NCBI GenBank assembly: GCA_963731595.1
Contig: CAVSWE010000003.1
Span: 300,948-345,914 of the forward strand
Direction of reading: 5' to 3'
DNA: 44,967 bases
Source of the DNA: an uncultured delta proteobacterium
Lineage (GTDB): Bacteria; Myxococcota_A; Polyangia; Polyangiales; Polyangiaceae
A program made the position numbers and the translations under genes. The notes beneath the pieces were generated by a model. It saw only the letters and a program-made list of their open reading frames with translations. It did not search any database and was not told the DNA's origin. Shown here in pieces: positions 1 through 40,820 of this stretch; position 1 is the first letter of the stretch; each line of letters begins with the position of its first letter.

Positions 1-115
1 CAAGCGCTTCGACGATATGCGTCTGCGGCGTGATGGGATAGGCGCAGATTACCTGGGGCCGGCAAAGCGCGATCGCCTCTGCAACCGCGCGCGATCCTTC
101 GGTCTGTTTAAGCAT
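1..115 (-). CDS. 2-oxoacid:ferredoxin oxidoreductase alpha subunit. Only the N-terminal 38 codons are present because the gene runs off the left edge.
   Basis: The reverse strand reads [38 protein letters not shown], a typical PorA/KorA N-terminus with the YPITPQT motif. The ATG at 113-115 overlaps the end of the gamma subunit gene. Confidence 0.75.
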
Positions 116-734
116 CGATCGTGTCTTTCGCTTGGGCGGCGAGCTCGAATGCTTCCGTCGCCGCGGCGACGTTCTTCTCCGCTACCGCCGCAGGAAATTT
201 CTGGCGGATGGCCGCGACGACCGAAGCCAGCGCGATCCGCTCAGTAACCGCGGCAAAGCCGCCGAGCAGCGCCGCGTTCGGCACCGGGCGGCCCACGTGC
301 TTGAGCGCAAGCTCGGTGGCCGGGAGCGAGCACAGGCGATAGCGCCCGACGCCCCGCGCGAACGGGCCCAGCCCGAGCTCGTCGAAGCTGCGCGTCGAGT
401 TGATCAGGATATAGCCATGCGGCTGGAGGCCACTGAACACGTCGACCTGATGCAGCAACGTCGGGTCCTGCACGATCAATGCATCGGGCTCCAGGACCGG
501 CTCGCGTAAGCGAATTTCCTTGTCGTCGATGCGGCAGAACGCCATCACGGGCGCGCCCATGCGCTCCGAGCCGAAGCTGGGAAACGCCTGGGCATAACGC
601 CCTTCGAGAAACGCCGCGACGGACAGCATTTCGGCGCCCGATACCACGCCCTGACCACCGCGGCCGTGAATCCGGATCTGGAACATGTCTGGTCGCGCCT
701 CGGTGTTCGCCGCAAGCCCTTGCGGCCCATTCAT
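108..734 (-). CDS. 2-oxoacid (pyruvate/2-ketoisovalerate type):ferredoxin oxidoreductase gamma subunit
   Basis: The ORF contains [21 protein letters not shown], the hallmark N-terminus of PorG-type gamma subunits. The start at 734 has AGGAGG about 10 nt upstream. The start at 686 (MFQIRIHG) is an equally plausible alternative. Confidence 0.85.
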
Positions 735-789
735 TGGGGAAAATCCTCCTGCCGACCCGGGAATTGTCCCCGTATTGCCGAAACCTATC

Positions 790-803
790 TTGACGCAGGT
801 CAA
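790..803. promoter_or_regulatory. FNR/CRP-family palindromic box TTGAC-GCAG-GTCAA in the divergent por/frd intergenic region
   Basis: A perfect 5-4-5 inverted repeat lies about 145 nt upstream of the frdC ATG and 56-104 nt upstream of the porG start candidates. It matches the TTGAT-N4-ATCAA family consensus in 8 of 10 half-site positions. Confidence 0.4.
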
Positions 804-942
804 CACTCGCCGACGGACCACGCGCTAGCTTCACGGGGCCTCGCCCGGATGACTGCAGCGGCCCGTGGACGGGCCGTTTCAGCCGGGACCGCGAGCCCGG
901 AAACGAGCACGGCGTCGACCACGCCGGGAAAGGAAGCGCACG

Positions 943-1750
943 ATGGAGCATAGCGGCCCGCTCATCGCCGGCGTCGGGCTCACCGACCCTGCCCGGCGCA
1001 GCCATTGGCCGGCGAGGCTGGACCTGGCGCAGAGCGCCTCGGGTCTCCTGCTCGCGCTTTTCATGTGGGCGCATATGGCCTTCGTCTCGTCGATCCTGCT
1101 TGGCAAGGACGTCATGTGGATGGTCACGAAATTCTTTGAAGGCTATTTTCTCTTCGGCCGGTCCTATCCGGGGCTTGTCTCGACCGTGGTCGCGCTGGTC
1201 ATCGCGCTCGTGGTAACGCACGCCATTCTGGCGCTGCGCAAATTCCCGATTAACTACCGTCAGTTCAGCACCTTTCGCGGCCATATGCGGATGCTGCGGC
1301 ACGAGGACACAACGCTTTGGTTCTGGCAGGTTGTCACTGGCTTCGCCCTGTTCTTTCTCGCCTCGGTGCACCTCTACATCATGCTTACCCGGCCCGACCG
1401 TATCGGGCCGTTCGAATCCGCCGACCGGGTGTGGAGCGACCATTTCTGGCCGCTGTATATCGTGCTACTGCTGACCGTCGAGGTGCACGGCGGGGTCGGC
1501 CTGTACCGGCTTGGCCGTAAAATGGGGTTGGTTCGCAGGCGGCGATGCGAACGCGGTGCGGCGTCGGCTCAAGCTCGCCAAATGGGCGCTGACGGCCTTC
1601 TTTCTGGTCCTTGGCGTGGCGACTCTGGCCGCCTATATCAAGATCGGCATCGAGCACCGTGACCACTATGGCGAGCACTACGTTCCCGCGGCGCAGCAAG
1701 CGTCGTCACCCCAACCCGCCGCTGGGGGCGCGGCGGGGAGCCCTCGGTGA
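943..1750 (+). CDS. frdC: Fumarate reductase/succinate dehydrogenase dihaem cytochrome b subunit (type B, Wolinella-like), with one apparent +1 frame disruption near 1510
   Basis: The ATG at 943 follows AGGAAG. The protein reads MEHSGPL...[13 protein letters not shown]...HGGVGLYRL, then the frame must shift (cttGgcc) to continue [11 protein letters not shown]...[12 protein letters not shown]. The stop overlaps the frdA GTG as GTGA at 1747-1750. Confidence 0.8.
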
Positions 1751-3765
1751 ACGTGATCTACACCGACGTGCTGGTGATCGGCGGTGGCCTCGCCGGGTTG
1801 CGGATCGGCATCGGTGCCAAACGCCGCGGCCAAGACGTGATCATCCTGTCGCTCGTCCCGCCCAAGCGCTCGCACTCTGCGGCGGCGCAAGGCGGCATGC
1901 AGGCGAGCCTGGGCAACGTCGTCAAGGCGATGGGTGACAACGAGGACGTGCATTTCGAAGACACCGTGCGGGGCAGCGACTGGGGCGCCGATCAGCGCGT
2001 CGTGCGCATGTTCGTCGACACGGCGCCCAAGGCCGTGCGCGAGCTTGCCGCGTGGGGCGTGCCGTGGAGCCGCGTGCAGAAAGGTGACCGGAAGGTGATC
2101 ATCAACGGGCAGAAGGTCACGATCACGGAGCGCGACGAAGCGCATGGACTGGTGATGCAACGCGACTTCGGTGGTACCAAGAAATGGCGCGCCTGCTACG
2201 TCTCCGACGGCACGGGTCACGCCATGCTGTACGCGATGAGCGACCAGGCAATCGCCCACGCGATCAGCGTGCACGAGCGCATGGAGGCCCTGGCGCTGAT
2301 CCACGACGGGTCGCGCTGCTATGGTGCGGTAGTACGCAACCTCGTGACCGGGAAATTGGTCGCGTACGTCGCCAAGGCTACCGCCATTGCGAGCGGCGGC
2401 GCGGGACGCCTCTATCGCGCGACGACCAACGCGGTCATCTGCGAGGGCATCGGCACGGCGCTGGCGTTGGAGACCGGCGTGGCAATGGTAGCCAACATGG
2501 AGGCGATCCAGTTTCACCCGACGGCAATCTTTCCGGCATGCATTCTGGTCACCGAAGGCTGCCGTGGGGACGGTGGATTGCTGCGCGACGCTGCGGGCAA
2601 GCGCTTCATGCCCGACTACGAGCCGGAGAAGAAGGAACTCGCCTCGCGCGACGTCGTATCCCGGCGCATGGAAGAGCACATCCGCAGGGGCGCGGGCGTG
2701 AAGTCACGGTTCGGCGAGCATCTGTGGCTCGACATCACCCTGCTCGGGGCCAAGCACATCGACAGCAACCTGCGCGAAGTGAAGGAGATCTGCCACTATT
2801 TCCTCGGCATCGATCCGATCAAGGATTGGATACCGGTGCGACCGGCACAGCATTACACGATGGGCGGGATCCGGACCGACCACACCGGCGGTAGCCCGAC
2901 GCTCAAAGGACTCTACGCCGCCGGCGAAGCCGCGTGCTGGGACCTGCACGGCTTTAACCGCCTGGGTGGAAACTCGGTCGCGGAAACCGTCGTCGGCGGC
3001 ATGATCGTGGGCGAGTTCATCGCCGATTTCTGTGCTCGTCCCGAGAGCAACCTGCAGTTCTCCACCGGCCTGATCCGCGAATTCCTGGAGCACGAGCAGG
3101 CCAAGCTCGACGCGCTCGCCGGTAACCGGGGCGGGGAAGAAGCCAACGCATTGCGGGTCCGAATGCAGGAGATCATGACGACCAAGGTCGGGATCTTCCG
3201 CACCGGCGGGGAGCTTGCCGCCGCGGTCGAGGAGCTGCAGTCGCTGCTGCGGCGCAGTCAGAACATCGGCCTGCGCTGCACCGCAAGTGGCGCAAATCCG
3301 GAGCTCGTTTCCGCCTACCGGGTCCAGAAGATGCTGCGGCTGGCGCTGTGCGTCGCCTACGGCGCGCTGACTCGGACCGAGAGCCGGGGCGCGCATTTTC
3401 GCCATGACTATCCGCGGCGCGACGACGCCGAATGGCTGAACCGCACGCTAGCAACGTGGAAGAGCGCCGACGACATGCTGCCGACGCTGGCACGCGAATC
3501 GCTTGACGTGATGCAGATGGAGCTGCCGCCGGGGTGGCGCGGATATGGGGCGAAGGACTACGTCGAGCATCCCGACACGGCGCGTCGTACCGCGGAGGTG
3601 GAGGCGATCAGGACCAGGCTCGTCAGTGCCGGCCGCGGGGTCGTACAGGAGGCCCTGATGCCGTACGCTGAGCTCATGCCCGAGCGCTTCCGCGGACCCA
3701 ACGAGCGCATCGATGAGCCGCTGCCACCGTCTCCCGCAGGCCCGCAACGACCGAGCCCGACATGA
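1747..3765 (+). CDS. frdA: Fumarate reductase/succinate dehydrogenase flavoprotein subunit
   Basis: An intact 672-aa ORF. It shows the FAD-binding N-terminus [22 protein letters not shown] (the covalent-FAD histidine context), and [18 protein letters not shown] near the C-terminal domain. Confidence 0.95.
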
Positions 3766-3822
3766 CCGGAGCCACCGCCATGGCCATCCCCGCCGGGGCC
3801 GCCTGAACGACCGCGGCGCAAG

Positions 3823-4536
3823 GTGCGGATTAGCGTCCTGCGCTACAACCCGCAGGAGCGCGGCAGTGTTCCCCGCATGCAGGCCTACGAACTCGAAGAG
3901 GCCGAGGGAATGACGCTGTTCATCGCGCTCAACGAAATCCGCGAAAAGCAGGACGCATCCCTGCAATTTGACTTCGTCTGCCGCGCCGGGATATGCGGCA
4001 GCTGCGGGATGCTGATCAATGGGCGCCCAGGGCTCGCCTGCCGTACGCTGACAAAGAACCTGGACCCGGAGATCACGCTGGCGCCCCTGCCGGTCTTCGA
4101 ATTGATCGCCGACCTTTCGGTGAACACCGGCAAGTGGATGCGGGCGATGAGCGAACGGCTGCAGACCTGGGTGCACATGCGCCAGAAAGAGGTGGACACT
4201 TCCCGGCTCGAGGAGCGCATGGAGCCGGAGCTGGCGCAGAAAATTTACGAACTTGATCGCTGCATTGAATGCGGGTGCTGCGTCGCCGGTTGTGGCACCG
4301 CGCGCATGCGCGAAGACTTTGTCGGCGCGGTCGGCCTGAACAAGATCGCCCGTTTCCGGCTCGACCCGCGCGACACGCGCACCGACGCAGACTTCTACGA
4401 ACTGGTCGGTGACGACAGCGGTGTATTCGGTTGCATGTCCTTGCTCGCTTGCCACGATGTCTGCCCGAAGGAGTTGCCGCTCGCAACGCAAATCGCCTTC
4501 ATGCGTCGCAAGATGGTGAGCATCGGTTGGAAATAG
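3823..4536 (+). CDS. frdB: Fumarate reductase/succinate dehydrogenase iron-sulfur subunit
   Basis: An intact 237-aa ORF with a GTG start. Cysteine motifs are CRAGICGSCGMLINGRPGLAC (2Fe-2S), CIECGCCVAGC and CMSLLACHDVCP (4Fe-4S/3Fe-4S). Confidence 0.93.
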   Translation: MRISVLRYNPQERGSVPRMQAYELEEAEGMTLFIALNEIREKQDASLQFDFVCRAGICGSCGMLINGRPGLACRTLTKNLDPEITLAPLPVFELIADLSVNTGKWMRAMSERLQTWVHMRQKEVDTSRLEERMEPELAQKIYELDRCIECGCCVAGCGTARMREDFVGAVGLNKIARFRLDPRDTRTDADFYELVGDDSGVFGCMSLLACHDVCPKELPLATQIAFMRRKMVSIGWK

Positions 4537-4568
4537 CAGCGTCTTTTTGCACCCTATGTGGAGGAGTC

Positions 4569-5575
4569 ATGAAGGTCGCAACGAAGTTTGCAACACTAAG
4601 TGTCGCACTGGCTAGTTTAGCGATTGCGTTCGGGGCACCCGCACAGCAGCCGATCATCATCAAGTTCAGCCACGTCGTTGCCGTCGACACGCCCAAGGGC
4701 AAGGGCGCGGAGAAATTCAAGCAGCTGGCCGAGGAGCGTACGAAGGGCCGGGTCAAGGTCGAGGTCTACCCGAACAGCACGCTGTACAAGGACGGCGAGG
4801 AAATCGACGCCCTGCAGCTGGGCTCGGTGCAGATGCTCGCCCCCTCGGTGGCCAAGTTCGGGCCGATGGGGGTGCGCGAATTCGAAGTCTTCGACCTGCC
4901 GTACATCTTTGACGACTTCGGCGAGCTGCACAAGGTCACCGAAGGCGCGGTTGGGAAACTGCTGTTCCAGAAACTCGATTCGAAGGGCATCGTCGGTCTT
5001 GCCTATTGGGACAACGGCTTCAAGGATTTCAGTGCCAACAAGCCGCTTAGGCTTCCCGGCGACGTCAGGGGTCTGAAGATGCGCATCCAGTCGTCGAAGG
5101 TGCTCGATGCCGAAATTCGTGCCCTCGGGGGGATTCCGCAGGTGATGGCCTTCTCCGAGGTGTATCAGGCGCTGCAGACCGGCGTGGTCGACGGCACCGA
5201 GAATCCACCGTCGAATTTCTATACCCAGAAGATGAACGAAGTGCAGAAGTATCTGACCCTGAGCGATCACGGCGTCATCGAATACGCGGTAATCGCGAAC
5301 AAGAAATTCTGGGATGGCTTGCCGGCGGATATCCGCACCATCCTCGAAGGCGCGATGAAGGATGCGACCAAATACGCCAACGACATCGCCAAGGAGGAGA
5401 ACGACAAGGCGCTCGCGGCGGTCAAGGCGACCGGGAAGACTGAAATCCTGACGCTCAGCCCCGATGCGAAGGCGGCCTGGAAAAAGGCGCTCTGCCGGTG
5501 CATCGAGAGATGGAAAGCCGGGTCGGCAAGGACATCATCCAGGAGGTCTACAAGGAAACCGGGTTCAAGCCCTGA
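4569..5575 (+). CDS. dctP: TRAP transporter C4-dicarboxylate-binding periplasmic protein DctP, with one apparent -1 frame disruption near 5491
   Basis: GGAGGA precedes the ATG at 4569. A signal peptide and a DctP-like body (IIIKFSHVVAVDTPKGKGAEKF...YWDNGFK) follow. After ...AKAAWKKAL the frame must change to read LPVHREMESRVGKDIIQEVYKETGFKP-stop at 5573-5575. Confidence 0.88.
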
Positions 5576-5624
5576 CCGAGCGTTGCAGCGCCTGATGCGC
5601 GAGCCGGGTTCGACGCAAACCGAC

Positions 5625-5652
5625 GCCGCTGCGGCCCGCAGCGGCTTTTTTG
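5625..5652 (+). terminator. Rho-independent terminator/attenuator between dctP and dctQ
   Basis: A 9-bp GC stem (GCCGCTGCG / CGCAGCGGC) with a 3-nt loop is followed directly by TTTTTT. Confidence 0.7.
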
Positions 5653-5694
5653 TGTGCAGCAGAACGGCGGTCGACCAACCGGGGACGCTTGCGC

Positions 5695-6306
5695 ATGCTG
5701 AAGCTCCTTGACCACCTCGAAGAGTGGCTCATCGCGCTGCTCATGGGCGGCGCGACGTTGATCATCTTCGTGGCCGTCGTTCACCGCTATGCCGCGGGCC
5801 TGCCCATCCCCGTGGTGCAGGACTGGCTGCTTGCGCTCAACCTGTCGTGGGCGCAGGAAGCATGCATCTACATGTTCGTATGGATGGCCAAGTTCGGTGC
5901 CGCTTACGGCGTGCGCACCGGCATCCACGTCGGCGTGGACGTGGTGATCAATCACCTGCCCGACGGCGTGCGCCGCAAGTTCATTCTTTTCGGACTGGGC
6001 GCCGGCGCGCTGTTCACCGGCGTGGTGGCCTCGTTCGGCGCCAGTTTCGTGTGGCAGCTCGCCCACACCGACCAGACCTCGCCCGACATGGAGCTGCCGA
6101 TGTGGCTGGTCTATCTGGCCATTCCCTGCGGCTCGGGGCTGATGTCCTTCCGCTTCCTCCAGGTGGCGTGGAACTTCTGGCGCACGGGCGAGCTGCCGCA
6201 TCACGACCCGACCGACGTGGCGGGCGTCGAAAAAATTGCCGACCAGGACGCCCACGTCGGCCTGGCGCAAGACAATCTTTTTCCCGCGCCGCCTGGCAAG
6301 CGCTGA
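5695..6306 (+). CDS. dctQ: TRAP transporter small permease DctQ
   Basis: Starts MLKLLDHLEEWLIALLMGGATLIIF and is a hydrophobic four-TM type protein. Its position between dctP and dctM fits. The ORF is intact. Confidence 0.85.
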   Translation: MLKLLDHLEEWLIALLMGGATLIIFVAVVHRYAAGLPIPVVQDWLLALNLSWAQEACIYMFVWMAKFGAAYGVRTGIHVGVDVVINHLPDGVRRKFILFGLGAGALFTGVVASFGASFVWQLAHTDQTSPDMELPMWLVYLAIPCGSGLMSFRFLQVAWNFWRTGELPHHDPTDVAGVEKIADQDAHVGLAQDNLFPAPPGKR

Positions 6307-6309
6307 GCC

Positions 6310-7605
6310 ATGACCTCCGCCATCATCTTCGGGCTGTTGATCGCGCTCATGCTCACCGGCATGCCCATCTCGATCGCGCTCGGGCTCACGGTCCTGACTT
6401 TCGTGTTCACCATGACCCAGGTGCCGATCGAATCGGTGGCCCTGAAGCTGTTCACCGGCATCGAGAAGTTCGAGATCATGGCCATCCCCTTCTTCATCCT
6501 CGCCGGCACTTTCCTCACCCATGGCGGGGTGGCGCGGCGGATGATCAATTTCGCCGCCTCCATGGTCGGCCATTGGCATGGAGGGCTGGCGCTCGCAGGC
6601 ATCATCGCCTGCGCGATGTTCGCGCTTGTATGCGGTTCGAGCGTCGCCACGGTGGTGGCCATCGGCTCCATCGTGCTGCCGGAGATGGTCAAGCGCGGCA
6701 TCCCCATGGACTTCGGCGCCGCCGTGATCACCGTCGCCGGTTCGCTCGGCATCCTGATGCTGCCGTCGATCCCCAAGGTCATCTACGCGATCGCCACCAA
6801 CACCTCGATCGGCGCGTTGTTTGTCGCCGGCCTGCTGCCGGGGATCCTGCTGACCACGATGCTCTGCCTGGTCACCTGGTATATCGCCAAGAAGCGCAAT
6901 TACCCGCGGCTGCCGCGCGAAAGCTGGGGCGCGCGCTTCAAGGCGTTCCGAGAGTCCGTCTGGGGCCTGATGCTCGTGGTCATCATCATCGGCGGCATCT
7001 ACTCGGGGATCTTCACCGCCACCGAGGCGGCCGCGATGGCCGCGGTGTACGCGTTCTTCGTGTCGGTGTTCGTGTACAAGGCCATGCCGCTCAAGGATTT
7101 GCGCAAGGTGCTGCTGACCTCGGCCAACATGAGCGCAATGCTGCTCTACATCATCACCAACGCGGCACTGTTCTCGTTCATCCTCACCAACGAGAACATT
7201 CCGCATGCCCTGGCGGACTGGATTATTGCCAAGGATCTGGGCTGGGTGGGGTTCCTGTTGCTGGCCAACGTGCTGTTGCTCCTGGCCGGCAATTTCATGG
7301 ACCCGTCCTCGGTCATTCTCATCATGGCGCCGATTCTCTACCCCGCGGCGATGACGCTCGGGATCAATCCGGTGCATCTCGGCATCCTGATCGACGTCAA
7401 CATGGAGGTCGGGCTCTGCCATCCCCCGGTGGGGCTCAATCTGTACGTGGCCTCGGGCATTTCGCGCCTCGGCATCACGCAGCTGACCAAGGCGCTGGTT
7501 CCCTGGCTCGTCACCATGCTGATCTTCCTGGTCATCGTCACCTATTGGCCGGCGCTGTCGACCTGGCTGCCGCAGAAGATGGGTATGATGGGGCCGTTGC
7601 CCTAG
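6310..7605 (+). CDS. dctM: TRAP transporter large permease DctM
   Basis: An intact 431-aa polytopic membrane ORF that starts 4 nt after the dctQ stop. It has a DctM-like sequence throughout. Confidence 0.92.
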   Translation: MTSAIIFGLLIALMLTGMPISIALGLTVLTFVFTMTQVPIESVALKLFTGIEKFEIMAIPFFILAGTFLTHGGVARRMINFAASMVGHWHGGLALAGIIACAMFALVCGSSVATVVAIGSIVLPEMVKRGIPMDFGAAVITVAGSLGILMLPSIPKVIYAIATNTSIGALFVAGLLPGILLTTMLCLVTWYIAKKRNYPRLPRESWGARFKAFRESVWGLMLVVIIIGGIYSGIFTATEAAAMAAVYAFFVSVFVYKAMPLKDLRKVLLTSANMSAMLLYIITNAALFSFILTNENIPHALADWIIAKDLGWVGFLLLANVLLLLAGNFMDPSSVILIMAPILYPAAMTLGINPVHLGILIDVNMEVGLCHPPVGLNLYVASGISRLGITQLTKALVPWLVTMLIFLVIVTYWPALSTWLPQKMGMMGPLP

Positions 7606-7701
7606 GTCCGGCGGGTCGAATCGACAAACGGCCGCTTTTCCGCGGCTATGTTACTCCGACCCACTTCGCAGATAAACTTCAGTTCTTTTGGCCCAACCAG
7701 T

Positions 7702-7953
7702 ATGCGGCTCGCAAAGTTCGTCAAGGTACGCGAGGAGAAATTTGGCGGCGTCCTCTTCGAGACGCGCTCGGAGAAGGTTTTTACGCTCAATCCAACGGCC
7801 ATGGCGGTCGTGCGCGAGATCGAAGCAGGCCATGACGAGCGCGAGATCGCCATGCGACTGAAGGCGCGCTTTAACGACAGTACCGACGTGATCGAGCGCG
7901 AAGTCGTCGCGTTCATCGCGGAGCTGCGGCAGAGAAGCCTTGTCGAGGGTTGA
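7702..7953 (+). CDS. PqqD/MftB-like peptide chaperone (RiPP recognition element protein)
   Basis: An 83-aa protein, MRLAKFVKVREEKFGGVLFETRSEKVFTLNPTAMAVVREIEAG... The R-E-x-FGgvL segment and overall size resemble the MftB RPExFGAL/PqqD family. Its end overlaps the next gene. Confidence 0.75.
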   Translation: MRLAKFVKVREEKFGGVLFETRSEKVFTLNPTAMAVVREIEAGHDEREIAMRLKARFNDSTDVIEREVVAFIAELRQRSLVEG

Positions 7954-8959
7954 GCGCGTGACAACATTGGCAACGGATAACGGACCCGACTCCGCGATCC
8001 CAGCGACGACCTCGACCTACGCCTGCTCGGAGGACCTCGCCGCGCCACTCTACGTGGCCTGGCAGATCACCAACGAATGCAACCTCGCCTGCCTGCACTG
8101 TATCGAGGAGAGCGGGCCGGGCAAGGCGTTCGCAGATGAGCTCGACGCGGCGCAGATATTCTCGGTGCTCGACCAGTTGCTGGACCACCAAGTCCCCTAC
8201 ATGTCCTTCTCGGGCGGCGAGCCTATGCTGCATCCGCAGTTCTTCGAGATGGTGGAGCACGTCTGCGCGCGTGGCGCCCAGCTCAAGATCGAGACCAACG
8301 GTCATTATCTGTCCGCCGAAAACTGTGCGCGGATGAAGGAACTCGGCGTCAAGGCGGTCCAGGTGAGCCTCGACGGCGCGTCCGCCAAGACGTTCGAGCG
8401 TATGCGCGTGCGCGGGAACTTCGATCGCACGCTCGATGGCCTGCGCAACCTTCGCGCGGCAGGCGTGCCCGTGGAGATTAACTTCTCGCCCGCCTGCTTC
8501 AACGTCCATGAGATCGGCGCGGTCGTCGACCTCGCATACAAGCTGGGCGCATACAGCTTCTACACCGGGACGCACGATGTACACCGGCAACGCCGTCAAG
8601 GCTTGGCGCCACCTGGAAGTTTCGGAGCCGAGCAATACGAGGCGTTCTTCGCTGTTCTGCGGCAAAAAGCCGAGGAGTACCACGGCCGCATGCGCGTCTA
8701 CTTTCACGAGGCGGGGTTGCTCGAGGAGCTGCGTTATCGCCTGCAGCACCCGGCTGCGCTGCTGATCGTGCTCCCGAACGGCCTGGTCAAGCTCATCAAC
8801 GCCTTGCCCTTCGTGTGCGGCGATTTTCGCCGCCAGACGCTGCGGGAAATCTGGGCGAATTTCCGCCGCGCCTGGCACGACCCGCGCGTGGCACAGTTCG
8901 TCGACGAGCTTGGCACCGACCCGGGCGGACACGGACGCTGCACCAATGGGTCTATCTTT
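7940..8959 (+). CDS. Radical SAM peptide-maturase-like protein, paralog 1 (MftC/PqqE-like N-terminal half, no SPASM cysteine cluster), frame-disrupted
   Basis: Motifs present: WQITNECNLACLHC (CxxxCxxC), FSGGEPMLHP, LKIETNG, VQVSLDGAS. Around 8568-8627 the paralog-conserved segment TGRTMYTGNAVKAWRHLEVS lies in another frame, implying two compensating shifts. The C-terminal LIVLPNGLVKLINALPFVCGDFRRQTLREIW is conserved. The true stop is uncertain: 8957-8959 if shifted at aatggg, otherwise the ORF runs to 9112. The start is TTG 7940 or GTG 7958. Confidence 0.75.
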
Positions 8960-9897
8960 GACTGCGCTGCCCGTGCGATCCGGCCGTTCGGCGCGCACGG
9001 CGCTGCACCGGCTGCTCGCCGTTTGCCGCCTGGTGCGCTACCGGTTTTTCCTATATGCCGGGCTGCTGCCGTATCTGCTCGGCGCGGCCTGGGCCTACGC
9101 TCGCGCTGGTAGCCTTCGACGCGCCGATTTTCTGGAGCGGCCTCGCGGGTGTAGTGCTCGCCGTAATCGGCGTCGAGGCATTCAACGAGTATTTCGATTC
9201 ACGCATGGGCACCGACCGCGTCTTCAACCCGGCCGAACTCCCGCCGATGTCTGACGCAGTGCTCTGGTTGGGCATTGCGGCCTTCGCCGGCGCGCTGGCG
9301 GTCGGCATCTACCTGACCGTGCGTGGCGGCTGGCCGATCCTGGCCTTCGCACTCCTGGGTGGAACGGCGGCGATCTTTTATGTGGCGCCCCCGATACGCT
9401 GGGCCTATCGTGGCCTGGGCGAACTGGTCATCGCCCTGTCCTACGGGCCCTGGATGGTACTGGGCAGCCTCTACCTGCAGAGCCAGGCGCTGTCGTGGGG
9501 GGCGCTCTTCGCGTCGCTCGTACCGGGATGCCTGATCATGGCGCTCGCGGTCGTCAACGCGATTCCCGATTACCACCAGGATCGCTTGGTCGGCAAGCGC
9601 AATCTCGTCGTGCGGCTCGGCCGCCGGCGCGCGGTTTGGCTGTATCTTGCCCTTGCGGCAGGCGGACTGCTGGTGGTGCCGGTCGGCGTAGCGAGCGGCA
9701 TCTCCCCGCCACCTGCCTGGCGGCCTTACTGGCGGTGCCGCTGCTCGTGGCCAGCGGCCGCTGCGCGCTGCGGCACTTATGAAACACCGCGCGCCTTTGT
9801 TCCCGCCGTGCGCAGCATCGTCGGCTGCTATCTGGTCGCCGTCGTGCTGTTCACCGCCGGCGTCCTGTGCAGTGGCGTAGCGTCCTTGCGCCCATGA
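8946..9897 (+). CDS. UbiA-superfamily (MenA-like) polyprenyltransferase, frame-disrupted
   Basis: First Asp-rich motif is AFNEYFDSRMGTD (NxxxDxxxxxxD form). Second motif is IPDYHQDRLVGKRNLVVRLG (MenA-like DxxxDxxxGKxxL). The protein is multi-TM and hydrophobic. Frame changes are needed near 9099, near 9700 and near 9775, where the alternate frame gives the hydrophobic LAALLAVPLLVASG. Its TGA overlaps the next ATG (ATGA at 9894-9897). Confidence 0.75.
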
Positions 9898-10856
9898 ACT
9901 GGATCGATCGCCTGCGCGCGCCGCTGTTCGTGTCCTGGCAGATCACGCGCGACTGCGACCTGTGCTGCCTGCATTGCTGCACCGAGTCGGCGCCGGGGAA
10001 GCGGTTGCCGGACGAACTCGACGCTGCCGAAGCGACGTGGCTGGCCGAGGAGATCGTCCGCAACGCAGTGCCCTACGTGATGCTTTGCGGCGGCGAGCCT
10101 TTGGTCGTGCCGCACTTTTTCGCCCTTGCCGAAGTCGCTGGGGCGGGCAGGCGTCCAGCTGAAGATCGAGACGAACGGGCAGCGCTTCGATGCCAAACTC
10201 GCCGCCCGGCTCGCCCGCCTGCCCGTCCGGTCGGTACAGATTAGCCTGGACGGCGACACACAGGAGGTCTACGAGCGCCAGCGGCCCGGGCGGCTTCGCT
10301 CGCCAAAGCCCATGCGGCCTGCCGCGCCGCTCGTGCGGCCGGGCTGCCGCTCGAAGTCACCTTTGCGCCGACCCGGCTCAACATTCACCAGGCCGGGCCG
10401 GTCATCGAGCGGGCGCGGGCGCTTGGTGCCTTTCGCTTCAATACCGGGCGGCTCATGCGCATCGGCACCGCCGCGCGGCTGTGGGAGAAGCTCGAGCCTT
10501 GCCGAGGAGCAATACCGGGAATTCCGCGCCTGTTGAACCGCATGGCCCGGCGCCTAGAGGGGCAACTGGAGATTTGCCATGCTCCGTTTGACCTCGCGGA
10601 AGGGCTGCGCGGCAGCCTCCAGAACGCCGCCGGCAACCCTGCTCGTGCTGCCCAACGGCTGGGTCAAGGTTGCCGCGGCACTGCCGCAGATCTGCGCTGA
10701 CTTGCGCCGCCATAGCCTTGACGGAGGCCTGGGAGGCCTACCGCAACGCGTGGCGGAGTGATACAGTGCTGGCGGAAGTACGGCGCGCGGTCGCCGATCC
10801 ATCGCGTCACGCGCGAGGCCAACAGTTGGCAGTTGTTGCCCGTCGCCCCGGTGTGA
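9894..10856 (+). pseudogene. Radical SAM peptide-maturase-like protein, paralog 2, needing about 6-7 frame changes to read
   Basis: Recognisable pieces lie in alternating frames: MNWIDRLRAPLFVSWQITRDCDLCCLHCCTESAPGK, LCGGEPLVVP, VQLKIETNGQRF, VQISLDGDTQEVYERQRPG, AAGLPLEVTFAPTRLNIHQAGPVIERARALGAFRFNTGRLMRIGTAARLWEKLEP, EEQYREFRA, LNRMARRLEGQLEICHAPFD, LLVLPNGWVKVAAALPQICADLRRHSLD, EAWEAYRNAWRSDTVLAEV. The stop is at 10854-10856 or 10859-10861. Confidence 0.7.
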
Positions 10857-10871
10857 CCTGACGGAGGGAAA

Positions 10872-11026
10872 ATGAGCGAGTTGAACCTGACGATCGAAGC
10901 CGCCAAGACCGGCGACGAACGCAAGACCGATACGGTGCAGCCGGCGCAAAAGCCGCATGGGAAACGCCCAAGCTCGAGGACGTGTCCGAGCAGGTGATGG
11001 CCCAACCGTATATCCGCTTCACCTGA
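10872..11026 (+). CDS. Candidate precursor peptide (PqqA/MftA-like), with one frame disruption in an A4 run
   Basis: GGAGGG sits 3-4 nt before the ATG at 10872. Frame 0 reads MSELNLTIEAAKTGDERKTDTVQPAQK, and after the aaaa run at 10948-10951 the -1 frame reads AAWETPKLEDVSEQVMAQPYIRFT-stop at 11024-11026. The second frame has no start codon of its own upstream. The gene lies between radical SAM paralogs 2 and 3. Confidence 0.6.
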
Positions 11027-11045
11027 GATACCCAGAACTTTCGCA

Positions 11046-12013
11046 ATGCCGGGGCGTTCGGTAGAAGAGTACCGAGCACCCCTTTTTCTTGCCTGGCAGC
11101 TGACCAACCGCTGCGCTGCGCGCTGCATCACCTGCTGCGAGGAATCCGGTCCCGATAAGGCATGGGGCGATGAGCTTTCCCGTGACGAGGCGATCGCGCT
11201 TGCACGGCGCATCGCGGCGTTCGGCATCGCCTACGTTGCCTTCGGCGGCGGCGAGCCGCTAGGTGTACCGCATTGCTGGGATCTGCTCGAGCTGCTCGCC
11301 GCGGCCGGCATCGCTCTTAAGATCGAGACCGACGGCAGTCACATCGACGCTTCCGCGGCCGATCGGCTCTCGGCGCTCGGCGTCGAGTGCATCCAAATTT
11401 CGGTCGACGGAGCGACAGCGGCGACGCATGAGCGCGTGCGTCCGGGATCGAGCTTCGCCGCGGCGGTCGCCGCCATCGAGCGACTGGTCGCGCGCGGTCG
11501 TGCACCGCAATTGGTGTTCGTTCCCACCCGCTTCAACTGCACGAGATCGTCGCCGCGTTCGATCTGGCGGCAACGCTCGGCTGCGGCGCATTCGTCACCG
11601 GCCCGCTGATGCGCATCGGCCGCGCCGCGGGCGCACTGGCAGCGCATCGCCTGCAGCAGACGAGGAGTGGCGCGCCGCGGTTACCGCGTTGAGAGAACGC
11701 ACCGCGTCGATGCGGCCCCGGAATGGCCCTTGTCGATCTATCCTTGGGACATTCGTTGCGGAGATGGAAACGCGGCTCGAGCGACCGCAGGCGATGCTGC
11801 TGGTCGTGCCCAACGGCAAGGTCAAGCTGCTCAATGCGCTCCCGTTCGCCGCCGCCGACCTGCGCCGCGATTCGCTCGAGGACGCGTGGCGGGCCTATCG
11901 CGACGCCTGGCATGCGCCGGAGGTGCGCGAATTCATCACCCGCTGCCGCAGCCAATCCAGCGCTGCTGATGCACGCCAATGAGACATGGCCGATGGTTAG
12001 GAACGACGGTTGA
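11046..12013 (+). pseudogene. Radical SAM peptide-maturase-like protein, paralog 3, needing about 5-6 frame changes to read
   Basis: Recognisable pieces: APLFLAWQLTNRCAARCITCCEESGPDK, FGGGEPLGVP, ALKIETDGSHI, IQISVDGATAATHERVRPGSSF, FVPTRFN then LHEIVAAFDLAATLGCGAFVTGPLMRIGRAAG, DEEWRAAVTALRER, EMETRLERPQAMLLVVPNGKVKLLNALPFAAADLRRDSLEDAWRAYRDAWHAPEVREFI. The C-terminus is either ...SAADARQ (stop at 11982) or NPALLMHANETWPMVRNDG (stop at 12013). Confidence 0.7.
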
Positions 12014-12112
12014 CCCCCGCGCCAGAAACCCCAATACTTAAGCGGCTGTGATTGAATACTTACCCGTCGTAGCGAAGCTTTTGAGGGCCCGGGAGCCCGC
12101 TGATCGGTTGCG

Positions 12113-12442
12113 ATGCATCGACTGACATTGGGACTACTCGCCGCCTGCACCGCTGGCGCAATCGCGGTTGCGGCCCAGCCAGCGCCGGACAGCTCCCGCG
12201 GCGAGCTCCTCTATTCCACCCATTGCATCGGTTGCCATAGCGCGCAGGTGCATTGGCGCGAAAAGAGGCTGGCGACAGACTGGGCAAGTCTCAGGATGCA
12301 AGTATTTCGATGGCAGATGAACACGGGCCTCGCCTGGAGCGACGAGGACATCGTCGCTGTCACCCGCTATCTGAACGATCTCTACTACCGTTTTCCGACG
12401 CCGGACAGGCCGGTGGCATTTCAGGGGTCGTCGGGTAACTGA
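12113..12442 (+). CDS. Small periplasmic monohaem cytochrome c
   Basis: An intact 109-aa ORF with a signal peptide (MHRLTLGLLAACTAGAIAVAAQP) and a single CIGCH haem-binding motif. Confidence 0.8.
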   Translation: MHRLTLGLLAACTAGAIAVAAQPAPDSSRGELLYSTHCIGCHSAQVHWREKRLATDWASLRMQVFRWQMNTGLAWSDEDIVAVTRYLNDLYYRFPTPDRPVAFQGSSGN

Positions 12443-12585
12443 TCCCGGGCTGCCGCGTCAAATCGATGTGAGTCGCTCGTTCTTTGCCGTCGACAAATGC
12501 TCTAGCTCGGGAGGCGCGCGCATACGACGGTCGAGTCCATCTCCCAGCGAGTGATCACTCGTGCCCCCAACGCGAGTGTACTGTT

Positions 12586-13095
12586 CTAGCTTGGCCGCCG
12601 CTGCAATAACGTGCCCAGGAGCAGAGCGAAGCCCAGGAAAATGACAAGCGACGCTTGCGCCAGAGTAAGTCCCAGGATCTTAAAGGACGTATCGGAACAG
12701 TCTCCCGTGGCATGCAGCAGTTGGGTCAGTACTTCGCTGACCGCCATGGTGTCCAGCATGTAGGCCAGGCCGGCACTGCAAGAGGCGACGCTTGGTGCCG
12801 GAAAAAGTTGCAGGTACGTCTGATAGCCGGCGACCCCGAGTCCTTCCAACGTCAGGATCGCAGCCATCCAAAGGAGAGCCCGCTGTACTCGACCTTGGGG
12901 CCGCGCCACGGCTGCGGCAAAGAAGACGGGTATCAGGCCAAGATACGTGAGCCGTTGGATGATGCACAAGGGGCACGGTTCGATCCCCAGTATGTGCTGG
13001 ACAAAAAAGCTTGCACCGACAAGACCGGTGCAGGTCACTCCAAGCAAGATCGAAACTTGGGCAGGAGAAGTCAGCACACGCGAAAGCCTATTCAC
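12586..13095 (-). CDS. dsbB: Disulfide bond formation protein B
   Basis: An intact 169-aa four-TM protein with CPLCIIQR in the first periplasmic loop and a second Cys pair region (SCSAG ... DCSD). Confidence 0.85.
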   Translation of the reverse strand: MNRLSRVLTSPAQVSILLGVTCTGLVGASFFVQHILGIEPCPLCIIQRLTYLGLIPVFFAAAVARPQGRVQRALLWMAAILTLEGLGVAGYQTYLQLFPAPSVASCSAGLAYMLDTMAVSEVLTQLLHATGDCSDTSFKILGLTLAQASLVIFLGFALLLGTLLQRRPS

Positions 13096-14631: not shown

Positions 14632-14904
14632 GTAACCCGTAGCCGGGTCGCCAATTTTCGGGCCAATGTTAGACGAACCCGCCATCTTGTGCCGTGAACA
14701 GCAGATCCCATGGACTGTCGCCAGTGCCGATCCAATATGAAATCAATCCTTCTTCTCGACCTTACGCGAACTCAGCGAGAAAATGTAGCACTTGCAGTAT
14801 TGCAATAGGGTTTCGGGAGCTTGGGCTGTTGCACCGTGGACATTATGGCGACGCAAGGAGCTCCAGCGCGAGGGCTCGAGGCAACCGATGATCTGCGAAC
14901 GCTC

Positions 14905-16553
14905 TTATGGACGCGCGGCGTCGATGCGCTCGCGGACCGCCCGCCACGCATCCGGCTGGCGCGCCTGCTCGAGCGGCGCTTCGCTATCGTAGGCGACGAC
15001 GAACGCCTGCTCCTCCGGCGCGAGGGGCTCGCACGTACGTAGCTGATAATCGAGCACCGCCAAATCGGCGTCCGAAGCGTCGGATCCTGCCGCGGCACGC
15101 TGCGCTATGCGCTCCCGAAGGGTCGAGTGCGCGCCATGAAATCCACGATCACGAAGGCGATGCCGAGCTCGATCGCGAGATTGCGGAAGAGGTCTCGCTG
15201 CCAGCGGTTGAGGAAAGTCGCGTCGATAATTGCAACGAAGCCGGCACCGACCACCTCTCGCGCCAGCGCGCCAAGCTCCCGGTATGTCGCCTCCGTCGCG
15301 CCGGCCGCGTACAGGCCACGATCGATGCCCGTCGCACCGCGCTCGTGGGCGTCGAGCCCGTGCATGCGCTTGCGCTCGACGTCGCTGCGGATTCGCACCG
15401 CGCCGATCGTCTCCAGCAGCACTCTGCGACAGGGTGGTCTTGCCGCAGCCGGCGAGCCCGTGGGTGACGAGGAGCGCGGGCCGTGTCGGCTGCGCGTAGC
15501 TTCGCGCCAGAGTCACGTGCGCGCGGTATTCGGCAAGCAATGCGCGTCGCGCTGCGCCGGCTTCGAGCTGTGCCGCGCGCAGCCGCGCGATCTTGGCGCG
15601 CACCATCGCGCGGTACACGAGATAGAAGCGCAGCACGGTCAGGCCAGCGTAGTCCCCCGTCCGCTCCAGGTACGCGTTGAGGAAGCGACGGGCCAGATCG
15701 ACTCGTCCGCGATAGTGGAGATCCATGACCGTGAACGCGACCTCGTTCATCACATCAATCCAGCGCATCGCCTCGTTGAATTCGATGCAATCGAAAATGA
15801 CAAGCTCGTCGTCGATGCGCGCGATGTTGTTGAGATGCAGGTCGCCGTGGCACTCGCGGATGAAGCCTTCCTTGCGCCGCCGCAGGAATGCGCCTTGGCA
15901 CGCGGCATGCTCGCGGTCGGTCCAGACGCGGAGCTCTTCGAGCTCGTCGCGTTCCGCCGCCGTCGCCACGTGCGGTCGGAACTGCGCGAAATTTTGCCGC
16001 GCGACGCGCAGAATCTCCTCCGGCGAGCCGAATGTGCCGTCGCGAGGAACGACACCGCTCGAGTCGTGAAAGGCGGCGACCTTCGCCGCCAGCGCATCAA
16101 TGTCGGCGGGTGAGAGCTCGCCGCGCGCCAGGATGCGGCTGGCCAGCGCGTCCTGCGGGAACTCGCGCATCTTCACCGCGTACTCGAGTGCCGGACCGTC
16201 GCCGCCGAGGACCGGAGCGTCAATGCTGCCCGTTATCGGCACGACGTCGAGGTAGAGCGCGGGTGCAAGCCGGCGATTGAGGCGCAACTCCTCTGTGCAG
16301 AAGAATCGCCGCGCCGCGAGTGTCGTGAAATCGAGAAAGCCGAAGTCGACCGCTTTCTTGATCTTGTACGCGTAGTGCCCGGCCAGGAAAACGCAGGAGA
16401 TGTGCGTTTCCAGCCGCTCGACGCGCCGCAGTCCGGCCCGAAGACCGCGGGACGGGAGAGCGCCGCCAGCAGTCGAACCTGATCCGTCTCGGTTGCGACG
16501 AGGGTCGTGGCCCGCTCGGGCGGCATGCGGTGGAAGATGCGTGGTGGCATCTG
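14905..16553 (-). pseudogene. Bifunctional aminoglycoside-phosphotransferase-like / P-loop (AAA_33-type) kinase, with at least 3 frame disruptions
   Basis: Pieces in different frames: ...LLAALSRPAVFGPD; VERLETHISCVFLAGHYAYKIKKAVDFGFLDFTTLAARRFFCTEELRLNRRLAPALYLDVVPITG; HGDLHLNNI (kinase catalytic loop); THGLAGCGKTTLSQ (P-loop); LLETIGAVRIRSDVERKRMHGL...FVAIIDATFLNRWQRDLF. Confidence 0.7.
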
Positions 16554-19948: not shown

Positions 19949-20554
19949 TTAAGACTTGCCGTATTGCGCCTTTGCGTTACTAACGCATGTATCCTTCGCG
20001 GAGCCCGCGAGTGCGTCGCACTTCTCGATCGCGACCTTGAAATCTGCGTCACGCTTGTCCGCGTTCGCCTCGTTGCGGGCGTTGGCCTGCTTCGTCGCCG
20101 CGTCCTGGTGCGTGTCGGCTGTGACACGGTCGACCTTGGCGTCGGCCTTACCCTTGACGAGAGCGGCATCCGCTTCCTTTACGCACACGTCCTTAGAATT
20201 GCCCGAAAGTTCGTCACATTTCTCCTTAGCAACGCTGTGGGTCGCTTCGGCCCGGGTAGCACGCGCATCCTCGCGCGCCGCCGGGGTGTTCTTGTACGCG
20301 GCTTCGGCGTCGGCCTTAGCAACCTTCTCCTTACCGTTGGCTTCCGCGAGGCAAATGTCCTTGGCGTTACCGCTTCGCGAAGAGCAGGCATCCTTGTCCA
20401 TCTTGCCTTGCGTCTCGGCGTTCTTAACCGCCATGTTGTAAGCATCCTTGGATATCGGCGTCGAATCGATCTTCGGGCCATTCATCTGCGCCGCGGCAGG
20501 TCCCGCTAAACCGAGGCTGCCAGCGACAAATAGTGCAATCATCGTCTTGGACAT
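19949..20554 (-). CDS. Secreted Ala/Lys/Asp-rich protein with three C-x4-G-x2-KD-x-C repeats
   Basis: An intact 201-aa ORF with AAGGAA upstream and a signal peptide (MSKTMIALFVAGSLGLAGPAAA). The repeats are CSSRSGNAKDIC, CDELSGNSKDVC and CDALAGSAKDTC. Confidence 0.7.
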   Translation of the reverse strand: MSKTMIALFVAGSLGLAGPAAAQMNGPKIDSTPISKDAYNMAVKNAETQGKMDKDACSSRSGNAKDICLAEANGKEKVAKADAEAAYKNTPAAREDARATRAEATHSVAKEKCDELSGNSKDVCVKEADAALVKGKADAKVDRVTADTHQDAATKQANARNEANADKRDADFKVAIEKCDALAGSAKDTCVSNAKAQYGKS

Positions 20555-20793
20555 GTTAGTTCCTTATGGTTCGATTATGGTGCCAGCAGCCTTGTCAAAG
20601 GCTAAAACGCCAAGGTTCCAATTCGTGCGGCTCGACGACCCTCAGTGTCAAACGAATCGACATAGGGACCCCTTAGCGAGAAGGATGCCTTTCCCCTCTG
20701 ATCTGAACGATAGGCGCGATACCCAATTGCGTCTGTGCGCCAGCGTACCCATTCCGTGCGGGATCCGCCGAGAGAGCAGGGTAAGTCCGTCGC

Positions 20794-21630
20794 TTAGCGC
20801 ACCGGGCCTTGCAGCTTGACCTCGTCGGTCCATACCTTGAAGCTGGTCAGTATATTGGGTCCGAACGTACTACTGATCGCGACGTCGCATGCGTCACGGC
20901 CGCGTGCAATGAGCACCCTTCCAATGCGCGGCATGTTGTTGCGGGGGTCGAAGGTGTACCAACGGCCATCGAGAAAGGCTTCGAACCAGGCAGCGAAATC
21001 CATCGGGCCGTACGGGGGCGGCACGCCAATGTCGCCGAGCTAGCCGGTGCAGTAGCGTGCAGGAATGTTCATGCATCGGCAAAAGGCGACTGCGAGGTGT
21101 GCATAGTCTCGACAGACCCCGGTTTTGTCGTAAAAAGCCTCGAATGCCGTGCGCGTCATGCGCGCATGCTCATAGCCAAATACGATATGTCGATGGACAT
21201 AATCGCAGATCGCTTGAACGCGACTCCATCCCGTTCGAATGTGCCCAAACAGATTCCACGCCGTCTCCGACAATCGGTCAGTTTCGCAATGCCGGCTTCC
21301 CAATAGGAACAGCAGCGTTTCCTCAGGGAGGTCTGCCACGGCTAGCTGTTGGGCCTGGGGAGCGATCACGTCCAGCGCCCCCGTATCGTTCACGATAGCA
21401 TTGGCCGACAGACACGTCCGACCCGTCGGCGCGACGATGCGGGTACACCAGTTGCCAAAGCTGTCCCGATAGGCTGCCATCGGTACCGGTGGGTTGACCA
21501 CCAAATCATCGCGGCCGATGAGATCGGAAACACGCGTGAAGTGGACGTTCAGGTTGAATACCATCGGAGTCGGCTTCGGGCACTCGTAGATCATTTCGAA
21601 CCCAACGCGTATTTGCAAAGTTGACCTCAA
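20794..21630 (-). pseudogene. Transglutaminase-like cysteine protease family protein interrupted by an in-frame TAG
   Basis: The two ORFs 21040-21630 and 20794-21024 are in the same frame. The read-through sequence is ...GVCRDYAHLAVAFCRCMNIPARYCTG-TAG-LGDIGVPPPYGPMDFAAWFEAFLDGRWYTFDPRNN. This is a transglutaminase core (catalytic Cys in GVCRDYAH, downstream His/Asp region) plus the N-terminal bacterial transglutaminase-N domain. Confidence 0.75.
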
Positions 21631-22215: not shown

Positions 22216-22281
22216 GATTGATTTCCTCGTGTTATGCGTCCCACGTTCGTCAGACAACTGTCCAAGGCGTTGGATCCGTTT

Positions 22282-22440: not shown

Positions 22441-22488
22441 TGTTCTGCCCCGGAAAGAGTTGTCTATCGATGCCGGCCCCGATGCGGC

Positions 22489-40811: not shown

Positions 40812-40820
40812 TGGCTTTGC

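Follow-up and report, generated by a model that had tools for sequence, protein, structure and literature searches.

A predicted peptide-maturation cassette with three radical SAM paralogues that lack auxiliary-cluster ligands, a PqqD-like chaperone and a MenA-like prenyltransferase

What could three related radical S-adenosylmethionine (SAM) enzymes do side by side if none of them seems to have kept the cysteines that hold auxiliary iron-sulfur clusters? This question is raised by a locus in the genome of an uncultured delta proteobacterium of the family Polyangiaceae (GCA_963731595.1, contig CAVSWE010000003.1, positions 300,948 to 345,914), of which we analysed the whole stretch of 44,967 nucleotides (hereafter the window). 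PqqE-like peptide modifiers are generally assumed to need the auxiliary clusters of their SPASM or twitch domain. An earlier note on this DNA had proposed that the window encodes three paralogous enzymes of this kind that keep the start of the SPASM/twitch fold and lack its cysteine ligands. As predicted from the sequence, positions 7702-12013 of the forward strand are a single, tightly packed six-gene operon of the type that matures RiPPs (ribosomally synthesised peptides that are modified post-translationally), in the order PqqD - rSAM1 - UbiA - rSAM2 - peptide - rSAM3 (rSAM, radical SAM enzyme). This cassette is kin to the radical SAM/PqqD peptide-maturation systems, which include the pyrroloquinoline quinone (PQQ) and mycofactocin pathways, and it differs from the known ones in its triplicated enzymes without clusters, its integral membrane prenyltransferase and its invariant, new peptide core.

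The radical SAM paralogues and their cysteines

The three enzymes rSAM1, rSAM2 and rSAM3 are encoded on the forward strand at 7958..8961, 9894..10856 and 11046..12013, and consist of 333, 318 and 320 amino acids (aa), respectively. Gene coordinates in the cassette were obtained by projecting onto the window the genes of L002, a 4.8-kb contig from a short-read assembly (97% identical to the window), and protein lengths are given after frame correction; a second contig, L001 (506 kb, 98% identical), spans the whole region as well. In the raw window the rSAM coding regions are each broken across two or three frames (six-frame read of 7600-12150), with 4, 8 and 7 indel columns splitting rSAM1, rSAM2 and rSAM3 (those of rSAM1 lie at 8565, 8627-8628 and 8925). 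The corrected proteins are 98%, 97% and 98% identical to their L002 orthologues, which for rSAM1 is the intact protein P0001.

The proposed paralogy is borne out by the intact L002 orthologues, which share 38-41% identity in pairwise comparison (BLASTP E = 1e-71 to 1e-77) and whose C-terminal domains alone match far beyond chance (E = 1e-20 to 1e-24). All three proteins belong to the radical SAM superfamily (PF04055, 84, 76 and 73 bits versus a cutoff of 29.5). They carry the core motifs that had been read from the letters, namely WQ(I/L)T, CxxxCxxC, ES(G/A)P(G/D)K, GGEP, LKIET(N/D)G, Q(V/I)S(L/V)DG and TG.(L/T)M..G.A, as well as the C-terminal block LL(I/V)V(L/V)PNG.VK...ALP....D(F/L)RR..L.(E/D).W...R.AW. 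The tails are less uniform than the suggested DP...H..(A/T)N.W: a proline (P321) and a tryptophan (W330) are indeed common to all three, and no other tail residue is, the actual C-termini being TDPGRTRTLHQWVYL, SNPSRHARANSWQLL and SHPALLMHANETWPMV.

Cysteine conservation was counted over 77 rSAM1, 69 rSAM2 and 57 rSAM3 orthologues. The CxxxCxxC cysteines (C41, C45 and C48 in rSAM1) are invariant throughout, and this motif and GGEP are kept by all three paralogues in every orthologue. Besides these, the conserved cysteines are C103, C123 and C286 in rSAM1, C29, C65, C142, C227 and C266 in rSAM2, and C31, C77, C115, C180, C203 and C299 in rSAM3. The isolated cysteines remarked on earlier turn out to be conserved in 100% of orthologues: C286, within PFVCGD, is the sole cysteine of the rSAM1 C-terminal domain, and C266 lies within PQICAD of rSAM2, at a place where rSAM3 has an alanine. 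The auxiliary-ligand motif CxxCx5CxxxC is absent from all three orthogroups and from the corrected window proteins, as the earlier note had claimed, and a SPASM motif masked by frameshifts was looked for in the frame-corrected and orthologous sequences and was not found. In the intact proteins the SPASM model PF13186 has no match at E <= 10; as a control, a cysteine-bearing relative of 31% identity (P0182) matches it at 8e-13. Alignment with SPASM-bearing relatives shows all seven SPASM cysteine positions (Cx9-15Gx4C ... Cx2Cx5Cx3C ... C) to be substituted or missing, the first three being occupied by Leu, Ile or Val, and the second half of the domain to be replaced by a helical tail of ~35 residues. 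The start of the fold is retained, since a hairpin and a helix align as ...P(N/D)G.V(K/T).....G(D/N)(L/F)(R/K)..(T/S)(L/F).(E/D)(I/A)W.

An AlphaFold model of rSAM1 built from a 47-sequence alignment (predicted local distance difference test, pLDDT, 93.4; predicted template-modelling score 0.89) has strands at 267-270, 275-277 and 284-288 followed by helices (helix 294-304), all with pLDDT >90, and thereby displays a twitch-like hairpin and helix after the barrel, nearest to those of SkfB. SkfB (6efn) is the top match of this model in a Foldseek search of the PDB (E = 7e-19, TM-score 0.72, 298 columns), followed by PqqE, BlsE and SuiB and, lower down, by anSME and MoaA, with the best matches covering ~290-314 columns. 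A profile-to-PDB sequence search returned SkfB at 8e-28, BlsE at 1e-13 and PqqE at 6e-11. As alignment, model, and Foldseek and profile matches agree, this structural reading is supported: the paralogues belong to the PqqE/MftC/SkfB-like branch, and they appear to keep the opening of the SPASM/twitch fold yet to have lost every auxiliary-cluster ligand. SkfB, a twitch sactisynthase, is their best match in both sequence and structure and shares the short, twitch-length C-terminal domain; unlike the paralogues, it has an auxiliary cluster and an N-terminal peptide-binding domain, whereas the paralogues have neither and leave peptide binding to PqqD. Among the NCBIfam models, MftC (TIGR03962) is the top match for all three, at 124.2, 123.8 and 109.2 bits for rSAM1-3 versus a cutoff of 265, and PqqE (TIGR02109) scores 83.6, 64.6 and 55.4 bits versus 381. 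One [4Fe-4S] cluster per chain is favoured by the sequence for rSAM1 and rSAM3; rSAM2 keeps five extra conserved cysteines scattered along the chain, and these may form an unconventional cluster site.

This set of enzymes is widespread. In a collection holding one genome per species, at least 569 stretches carry rSAM1 relatives; 80 loci were retrieved, and a protein search with rSAM1 returned hundreds of intact 333-aa orthologues. Every sufficiently long locus among the 80 has the identical six-gene order. Carriers include Casimicrobiaceae, Usitatibacter, Caldimonas and other Burkholderiales, Steroidobacteraceae, Rhodopila, Acidocella and, with a complete genome, Betaproteobacteria bacterium GR16-43 (CP019169); the named ones are mainly soil and wetland Beta-, Gamma- and Alphaproteobacteria. 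A recent local duplication confined to this genome, which would have undone the earlier interpretation, is ruled out, as the three orthogroups are found together, with their order unchanged, not only in Beta-, Gamma- and Alphaproteobacteria but also in lineages further away. In a neighbour-joining tree (no bootstrap) the orthogroups are jointly monophyletic with the SPASM-bearing relatives outside, and each has a deep-branching member, which points to one old triplication. Two distant cassettes (L086 and L088) have the same gene order, with enzymes 40-45% identical to those of the window. In L086, a gene end upstream of pqqD (3-479) resembles a trans-polyprenyl diphosphate synthase (FQMVDDVLD motif), and a DUF6624 protein (4707-5435) comes after rSAM3.

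The family extends well beyond the cassette. A search of 1.84 billion representatives yielded 40,368 matches at E <= 1e-3 and 107 at E <= 1e-30, and many relatives of 300-370 aa (25-46% identity) carry the C-terminal block without the cysteines; of ten that were scanned, none comes up to an NCBIfam cutoff. Genomically, these relatives are mostly linked to PqqD, as in L084 (PqqD - rSAM - UbiA), L089 (polyprenyl synthase - rSAM - PqqD - 57-aa open reading frame (ORF) - UbiA) and L092 (PqqD - rSAM - 51-aa ORF - rSAM - ATP-binding cassette (ABC) transporter - M16 peptidase). In the L089 region (178-3625), which is low in guanine and cytosine (GC), the rSAM is cysteine-less, the 57-aa ORF ends in ...KKDNYIVSTLF and the UbiA protein has the same Asp-rich motifs as that of the cassette; loci of this type suggest a broader class of peptide-plus-prenyl systems. 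The exception is a haem cluster, L085 (hemE - rSAM - hemH): there (1139-5084) the cysteine-less P0137, 37% identical, lies between hemE (URO-D) and hemH (ferrochelatase), and a HemY-like oxidase comes next. P0137 may be an AhbD-like haem-synthesis enzyme free of auxiliary clusters.

The peptide, its chaperone and the prenyltransferase

The label "peptide-type" given to these enzymes in the earlier note is backed by their surroundings, namely an adjoining PqqD gene and a conserved precursor peptide. These two genes, and that of a prenyltransferase, had escaped the earlier note. The cassette opens with a PqqD-family peptide chaperone, or RiPP recognition element (83 aa, 7702..7953; 100% identical to its L002 orthologue). 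Between rSAM1 and rSAM2 lies the gene of a MenA-like UbiA-family polyprenyltransferase (8946..9880, 310 aa after correction), and between rSAM2 and rSAM3 that of the peptide (10872..11026, 51 aa, with a 1-nt deletion in the window near 10957), all on the forward strand. The junctions are short or overlapping, the UbiA gene start overlapping the rSAM1 stop by 16 nt; a promoter and terminator scan of 7400-12700 gave no usable signal for the operon boundaries.

The peptide gene was found between rSAM2 and rSAM3 in 74 loci. The predicted peptides measure 46-53 aa, and their leaders (in the window, MSELNLTIEAAKTGDERKTDTVQPAQKP) diverge freely. The last 22 residues read W-E-T-P-K-(L/M)-E-D-V-S-E-(Q/E)-V-(M/T)-A-Q-P-Y-I-R-F-T (WETPKLEDVSEQVMAQPYIRFT in the window), and 12 of them are invariant across the 74 loci (W1, P4, S10, V13, A15, Q16, P17, Y18, I19, R20, F21 and T22). 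The DNA encoding this core is distinct in 72 of the 74, and such distinct DNA with unchanged residues argues that the ORF is translated and under strong selection at the protein level. The gene thus has the generic features of a RiPP precursor, i.e., a short ORF next to modifying enzymes, a variable leader, a conserved core and purifying selection. Also in the distant cassettes L086 and L088 the core ...V-S-x-K-V-M-A-Q-P-Y-I-R-F-T is kept. The peptide has no Pfam or NCBIfam match at E <= 10, the PqqA model included; searching with a profile retrieved 2,696 clusters at E <= 0.01, and among the 120 matches listed all are unnamed or "hypothetical protein". A related core (W-E-x-P...D-V-(S/T)..(V/L)MAQPY, in the form WEPP..DVT..LMAQPY) occurs in the archaeal-looking locus L090, in an uncalled ORF at 4607-4717 (...IEWEPPIIKDVTRPLMAQPYKTSTLLI) directly before a PqqD gene. 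In L090 (4607-6939) and L091, this uncalled 36-aa ORF (MDTTNSKIKIEWEPPIIKDVTRPLMAQPYKTSTLLI) is followed by PqqD, a cysteine-less rSAM, a SPASM rSAM and a major facilitator superfamily (MFS) transporter; Pelota and Toprim are neighbours on the L090 contig.

PqqD is an established peptide chaperone family (PMC10906245). The protein of the cassette matches PF05402 at 49.8 bits (cutoff 23.4), stays below the PQQ-specific equivalog TIGR03859 (35.3 bits versus 46), and is encoded directly upstream of rSAM1 in every locus covering that region. With its conserved tyrosine near the C-terminus of a small peptide, its separate PqqD and its PqqE-like radical SAM barrel (PqqE is the second-best structural match), the cassette resembles the PQQ system (PqqA/PqqD/PqqE), and it shares a W-x-x-P upstream of the core. 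The distance from W to the C-terminus is 22 residues, and W1, P4, D8 and Y18 stand at what we take to be the positions of their counterparts in PqqA. Unlike the PQQ system, the cassette has three radical SAM enzymes and not one, without the ligands of the auxiliary clusters AuxI and AuxII, and a prenyltransferase is added; furthermore, the cross-linked pair of PqqA is E-x-x-x-Y, whereas the residue four positions before the tyrosine is here Met (70 of 74 loci) or Thr (4 of 74). The mycofactocin system is similar in that a redox cofactor is derived from the C-terminal Tyr of a peptide with the help of a PqqD-like chaperone; in contrast to the cassette, MftC has SPASM clusters, the mycofactocin core ends in Gly-Val-Tyr, and the product of the cassette is predicted to be lipidated. 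Neither PqqB/PqqC (also PqqF) nor MftD/E/F is encoded among the six cassette genes or the recurrent flanking clusters.

The prenyltransferase gene is present in every sufficiently long cassette locus. Its product has the UbiA domain (PF01040, 79.6 bits versus a cutoff of 34.2) and readable Asp-rich motifs, NEYFDSRMGTD and NAIPDYHQDRLVGKRNL, of the patterns N..xD...G.D and N...D...D...GK. Its best-scoring NCBIfam models are MenA types without exception (E = 7e-30), and it remains under every MenA equivalog cutoff (TIGR00751, 71.5 bits versus 102; best MenA-type model, 104.6 versus 264). In contrast to MenA, it is encoded in a peptide-modification operon and not in a men/mqn pathway. A polyprenyl diphosphate synthase gene adjoins two related cassettes (L086 and L089).

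Proposed function and competing explanations

We lean towards the view, giving it slightly better than an even chance, that this is a RiPP-type cassette in which a tyrosine-centred peptide is modified by three radical SAM enzymes and then prenylated, yielding a membrane-anchored product. The 51-aa peptide would first be translated, and the PqqD-like chaperone would bind its leader near the W-x-x-P region and offer the invariant core V-S-x-x-V-M-A-Q-P-Y-I-R-F-T to the three paralogues. Acting in succession or inside one complex, each of these would abstract a different hydrogen and make its own modification around the tyrosine of M-A-Q-P-Y; such separate modifications are probable given that each paralogue keeps a complete SAM-cleaving [4Fe-4S] site. 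The MenA-like enzyme would then add a polyprenyl chain to the resulting aromatic group and so anchor the product in the membrane; the phenol of tyrosine resembles 4-hydroxybenzoate, the substrate of UbiA. In PqqE, the auxiliary clusters are essential for cross-linking, and their removal abolishes it (PMC10906245), so the chemistry of the cassette is likely to be different or to involve another hydrogen or electron partner. Without auxiliary clusters the paralogues should need no internal electron sink, and their reactions could be redox-neutral or quenched by a hydrogen donor, for which the invariant C286 of rSAM1 and C266 of rSAM2 are candidates.

What the product might be for is suggested by the surrounding genes; we counted these up to 5 kb away from the cassette in the 69 loci that have both flanks. 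At least one marker gene (fumarate reductase, NapC/NirT quinol dehydrogenase or MtrA/MtrB) occurs in 44 of these: a NapC/NirT tetrahaem quinol dehydrogenase in 22 (the nearest at a distance of 11 nt), an MtrA-like decahaem cytochrome in 17, FrdA/FrdB in 14-15 and an MtrB/PioB porin in 13. Formate dehydrogenase gamma and iron-sulfur subunits, pyruvate:ferredoxin oxidoreductase and Fnr-like regulators recur as neighbours too. From this neighbourhood we infer a likely role for the product as electron carrier or cofactor in quinol-linked anaerobic respiration. Menaquinone was lost ancestrally in Pseudomonadota, and low-potential quinones are the partners of fumarate reductase (PMC11707229); menaquinone-7 is used by CymA, an enzyme of the NapC/NirT family (PMC3340143). 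More specifically, and as a tentative idea that we hold more probably wrong than right, the product could be an oxygen-independent, low-potential, quinone-like respiratory lipid whose head group, derived from the peptide tyrosine, is tailored by the radical SAM enzymes and polyprenylated by the MenA-like enzyme, and which would serve fumarate reductase, CymA/NapC-type dehydrogenases and Mtr conduits in otherwise ubiquinone-only Proteobacteria.

Several points weigh against the peptide-prenylation scheme and the respiratory role attached to it. The cassette has no protease, hydroxylase or methyltransferase, which leaves the release of a head group from the peptide unexplained; the peptide has no match to the Pfam PqqA model, and the residue at the place of PQQ's Glu is Met or Thr. 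We know of no UbiA-family enzyme that accepts peptides, and in L090, where no UbiA gene is nearby and an MFS transporter is present, prenylation does not seem to go with the peptide family universally. The relative in the haem cluster L085 indicates that the clade is not exclusively directed at peptides. Among the 69 loci, 25 have none of the five marker genes, and the neighbourhood signal partly reflects inherited synteny of related lineages. The cassette genes are frameshifted in this particular window, so that function in this strain is not assured, and modification, activity and product are all predictions from sequence and context.

The three paralogues could alternatively form an obligate hetero-oligomer that performs essentially one transformation, with subunits in structural or electron-relay roles replacing the lost clusters. 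Their strict co-occurrence, their fixed order and the single PqqD that serves all three would fit such an assembly, as would one old triplication that was retained ever after, and the loss of clusters that are essential in PqqE calls for a substitute electron path. However, CxxxCxxC and GGEP are intact in all three, which a purely structural subunit would not need, and the cassettes of relatives (L089, L090 and L092) operate with one or two enzymes of this kind; we consider this arrangement unlikely.

The RiPP architecture of a PqqD chaperone and radical SAM enzymes would equally be compatible with a product that is not a cofactor but a bioactive lipopeptide (a signal or an antibiotic, for instance), secreted or inserted into the membrane, and in the wider cysteine-less clade some members do adjoin an M16 peptidase and transporters of the ABC or MFS type (L090 and L092). 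Yet the six genes have no conserved companion that encodes a transporter, a protease or an immunity protein, a search of plasmids with rSAM1 gave no match, and the neighbours are respiratory genes. Moreover, the core is nearly invariant across Alpha-, Beta- and Gammaproteobacteria and beyond, as is typical of cofactor precursors such as PqqA or MftA, whereas antibiotic cores evolve fast. This makes a lipopeptide of that sort distinctly improbable in our eyes.

Could the substrate of the radical SAM enzymes and the UbiA protein be something other than a peptide, for instance a tetrapyrrole or a quinone precursor, with the small ORF as a scaffold, a regulator or some other non-substrate? The models of AhbD, NirJ and NirJ2 are among the best NCBIfam matches (AhbD and NirJ have similar scores over the N-terminal barrel, E ~1e-35), P0137 sits in a hemE-hemH cluster, multihaem cytochromes are frequent neighbours, and the UbiA family includes tetrapyrrole prenyltransferases, with haem O and chlorophyll synthases as models. 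The matches to AhbD (TIGR04545; 122.5, 84.6 and 93.8 bits for rSAM1-3 versus 500) and NirJ (TIGR04051; 111.7, 77.7 and 71.6 bits versus 515) nevertheless fall far under the cutoffs, and unlike the paralogues, those enzymes come without PqqD or a precursor peptide. AhbD and NirJ also carry auxiliary clusters in a SPASM/twitch domain (PMC10452713). Since, in addition, the UbiA gene scores best with MenA models and not with CyoE or ChlG, and it is difficult to account for a dedicated PqqD and an invariant core unless the peptide is modified, we regard a non-peptide substrate as very unlikely.

It could finally be argued that the cassette of this genome is a decaying pseudogene cluster with genuine frameshifts. 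Compared with L002, the stretch from 8565 to 11954 contains 25 indels, each of 1-2 nt; they lie outside homopolymers and are mostly insertions, with no larger deletions. Relative to L001, 28 of the 39 indels found over 17 kb cluster within 8.5-12 kb (~8 per kb versus 0.8 per kb elsewhere), where mismatches are denser too, as decay would have it. However, the substitutions relative to the intact L002 copy are mostly synonymous (synonymous:non-synonymous 22:7 in rSAM1, 23:14 in UbiA, 23:9 in rSAM2 and 14:6 in rSAM3), and once the indels are removed, the proteins are full-length again, 96-98% identical to those of L002 and free of in-frame stops. Comparison with the near-identical contigs reveals frameshift-type indels elsewhere in the window as well (834-876, 1508, 3784, 5493 at the C-terminus of dctP, 6064 and 14724-16426), and L001 carries separate indels of its own in the same GC-rich stretch. 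On account of the intact L002, the mainly synonymous changes, the stop-free corrected proteins, the small size of the insertions and the indels elsewhere, consensus errors of a long-read assembly are the most likely origin, and we give very recent decay very little credence.

Flanking genes and implications

Upstream of the cassette, the window encodes a pyruvate:ferredoxin oxidoreductase subunit, FrdCAB and DctPQM (108-7605), which together look like an anaerobic fumarate-respiration module. FrdC (a dihaem cytochrome b), FrdA and FrdB (865..4536, forward strand) score above the cutoffs of NF010072, NF006383 and NF010071 in NCBIfam and are single-cytochrome-b fumarate reductase equivalogs. They are followed by DctP/Q/M, a tripartite ATP-independent periplasmic transporter of the C4-dicarboxylate type (4431..7605, forward strand; Pfam DctP and DctM on the syntenic L001), with DctP frameshifted near 5493. 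Downstream, we considered a small c-type cytochrome (12113..12442, forward strand; CIGCH, weak Pfam cytochrome c match) as a seventh cassette gene and rejected it, as it is not conserved: apart from a weak match in L059, it was seen in L001, L002 and L004 alone. A DsbB-like gene comes after it on the reverse strand (12586-13095). An Fnr-family regulator is encoded ~36 nt downstream of rSAM3 in L024 (11034-11957), and such a regulator is found in six loci in all (median gap ~330 nt). FNR boxes (TTGAT-N4-ATCAA, up to two mismatches) upstream of pqqD, seen in 15 of 79 loci and 66 of 790 control windows, were set aside and not used as evidence, as the enrichment is only about two-fold and confounded by composition. 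Further along the window, GC content falls from ~0.65 to 0.53-0.59 (~20000-30000, 32000-33000 and 38500-44500); some ORFs, among them 43829-44458 (with an IS110-like N-terminus) and 38584-39207, resemble transposases, and these segments may be an island or a segment rich in insertion sequences.

No specific NCBIfam or Pfam model scores above its cutoff for any cassette protein, the matches being to the generic Radical_SAM, Fer4_12, PqqD and UbiA, and we found no paper describing the cassette, in a search that left out most subscription journals and therefore does not prove absence. For radical SAM enzymology, the cassette presents a large conserved clade that keeps the fold, has dropped the ligands and comes in threes, which would imply another chemistry or another handling of radical intermediates. 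For the biology of RiPPs, it would couple a ribosomal peptide to a UbiA-type prenyltransferase of the membrane, a pairing that we did not find described in the literature searched. With five enzymes and a single peptide the system is small, and there are carriers that are cultured or have a complete genome. Should its product be an electron carrier or cofactor, this would close a recognised gap, namely how ubiquinone-only Proteobacteria run low-potential anaerobic respiration.

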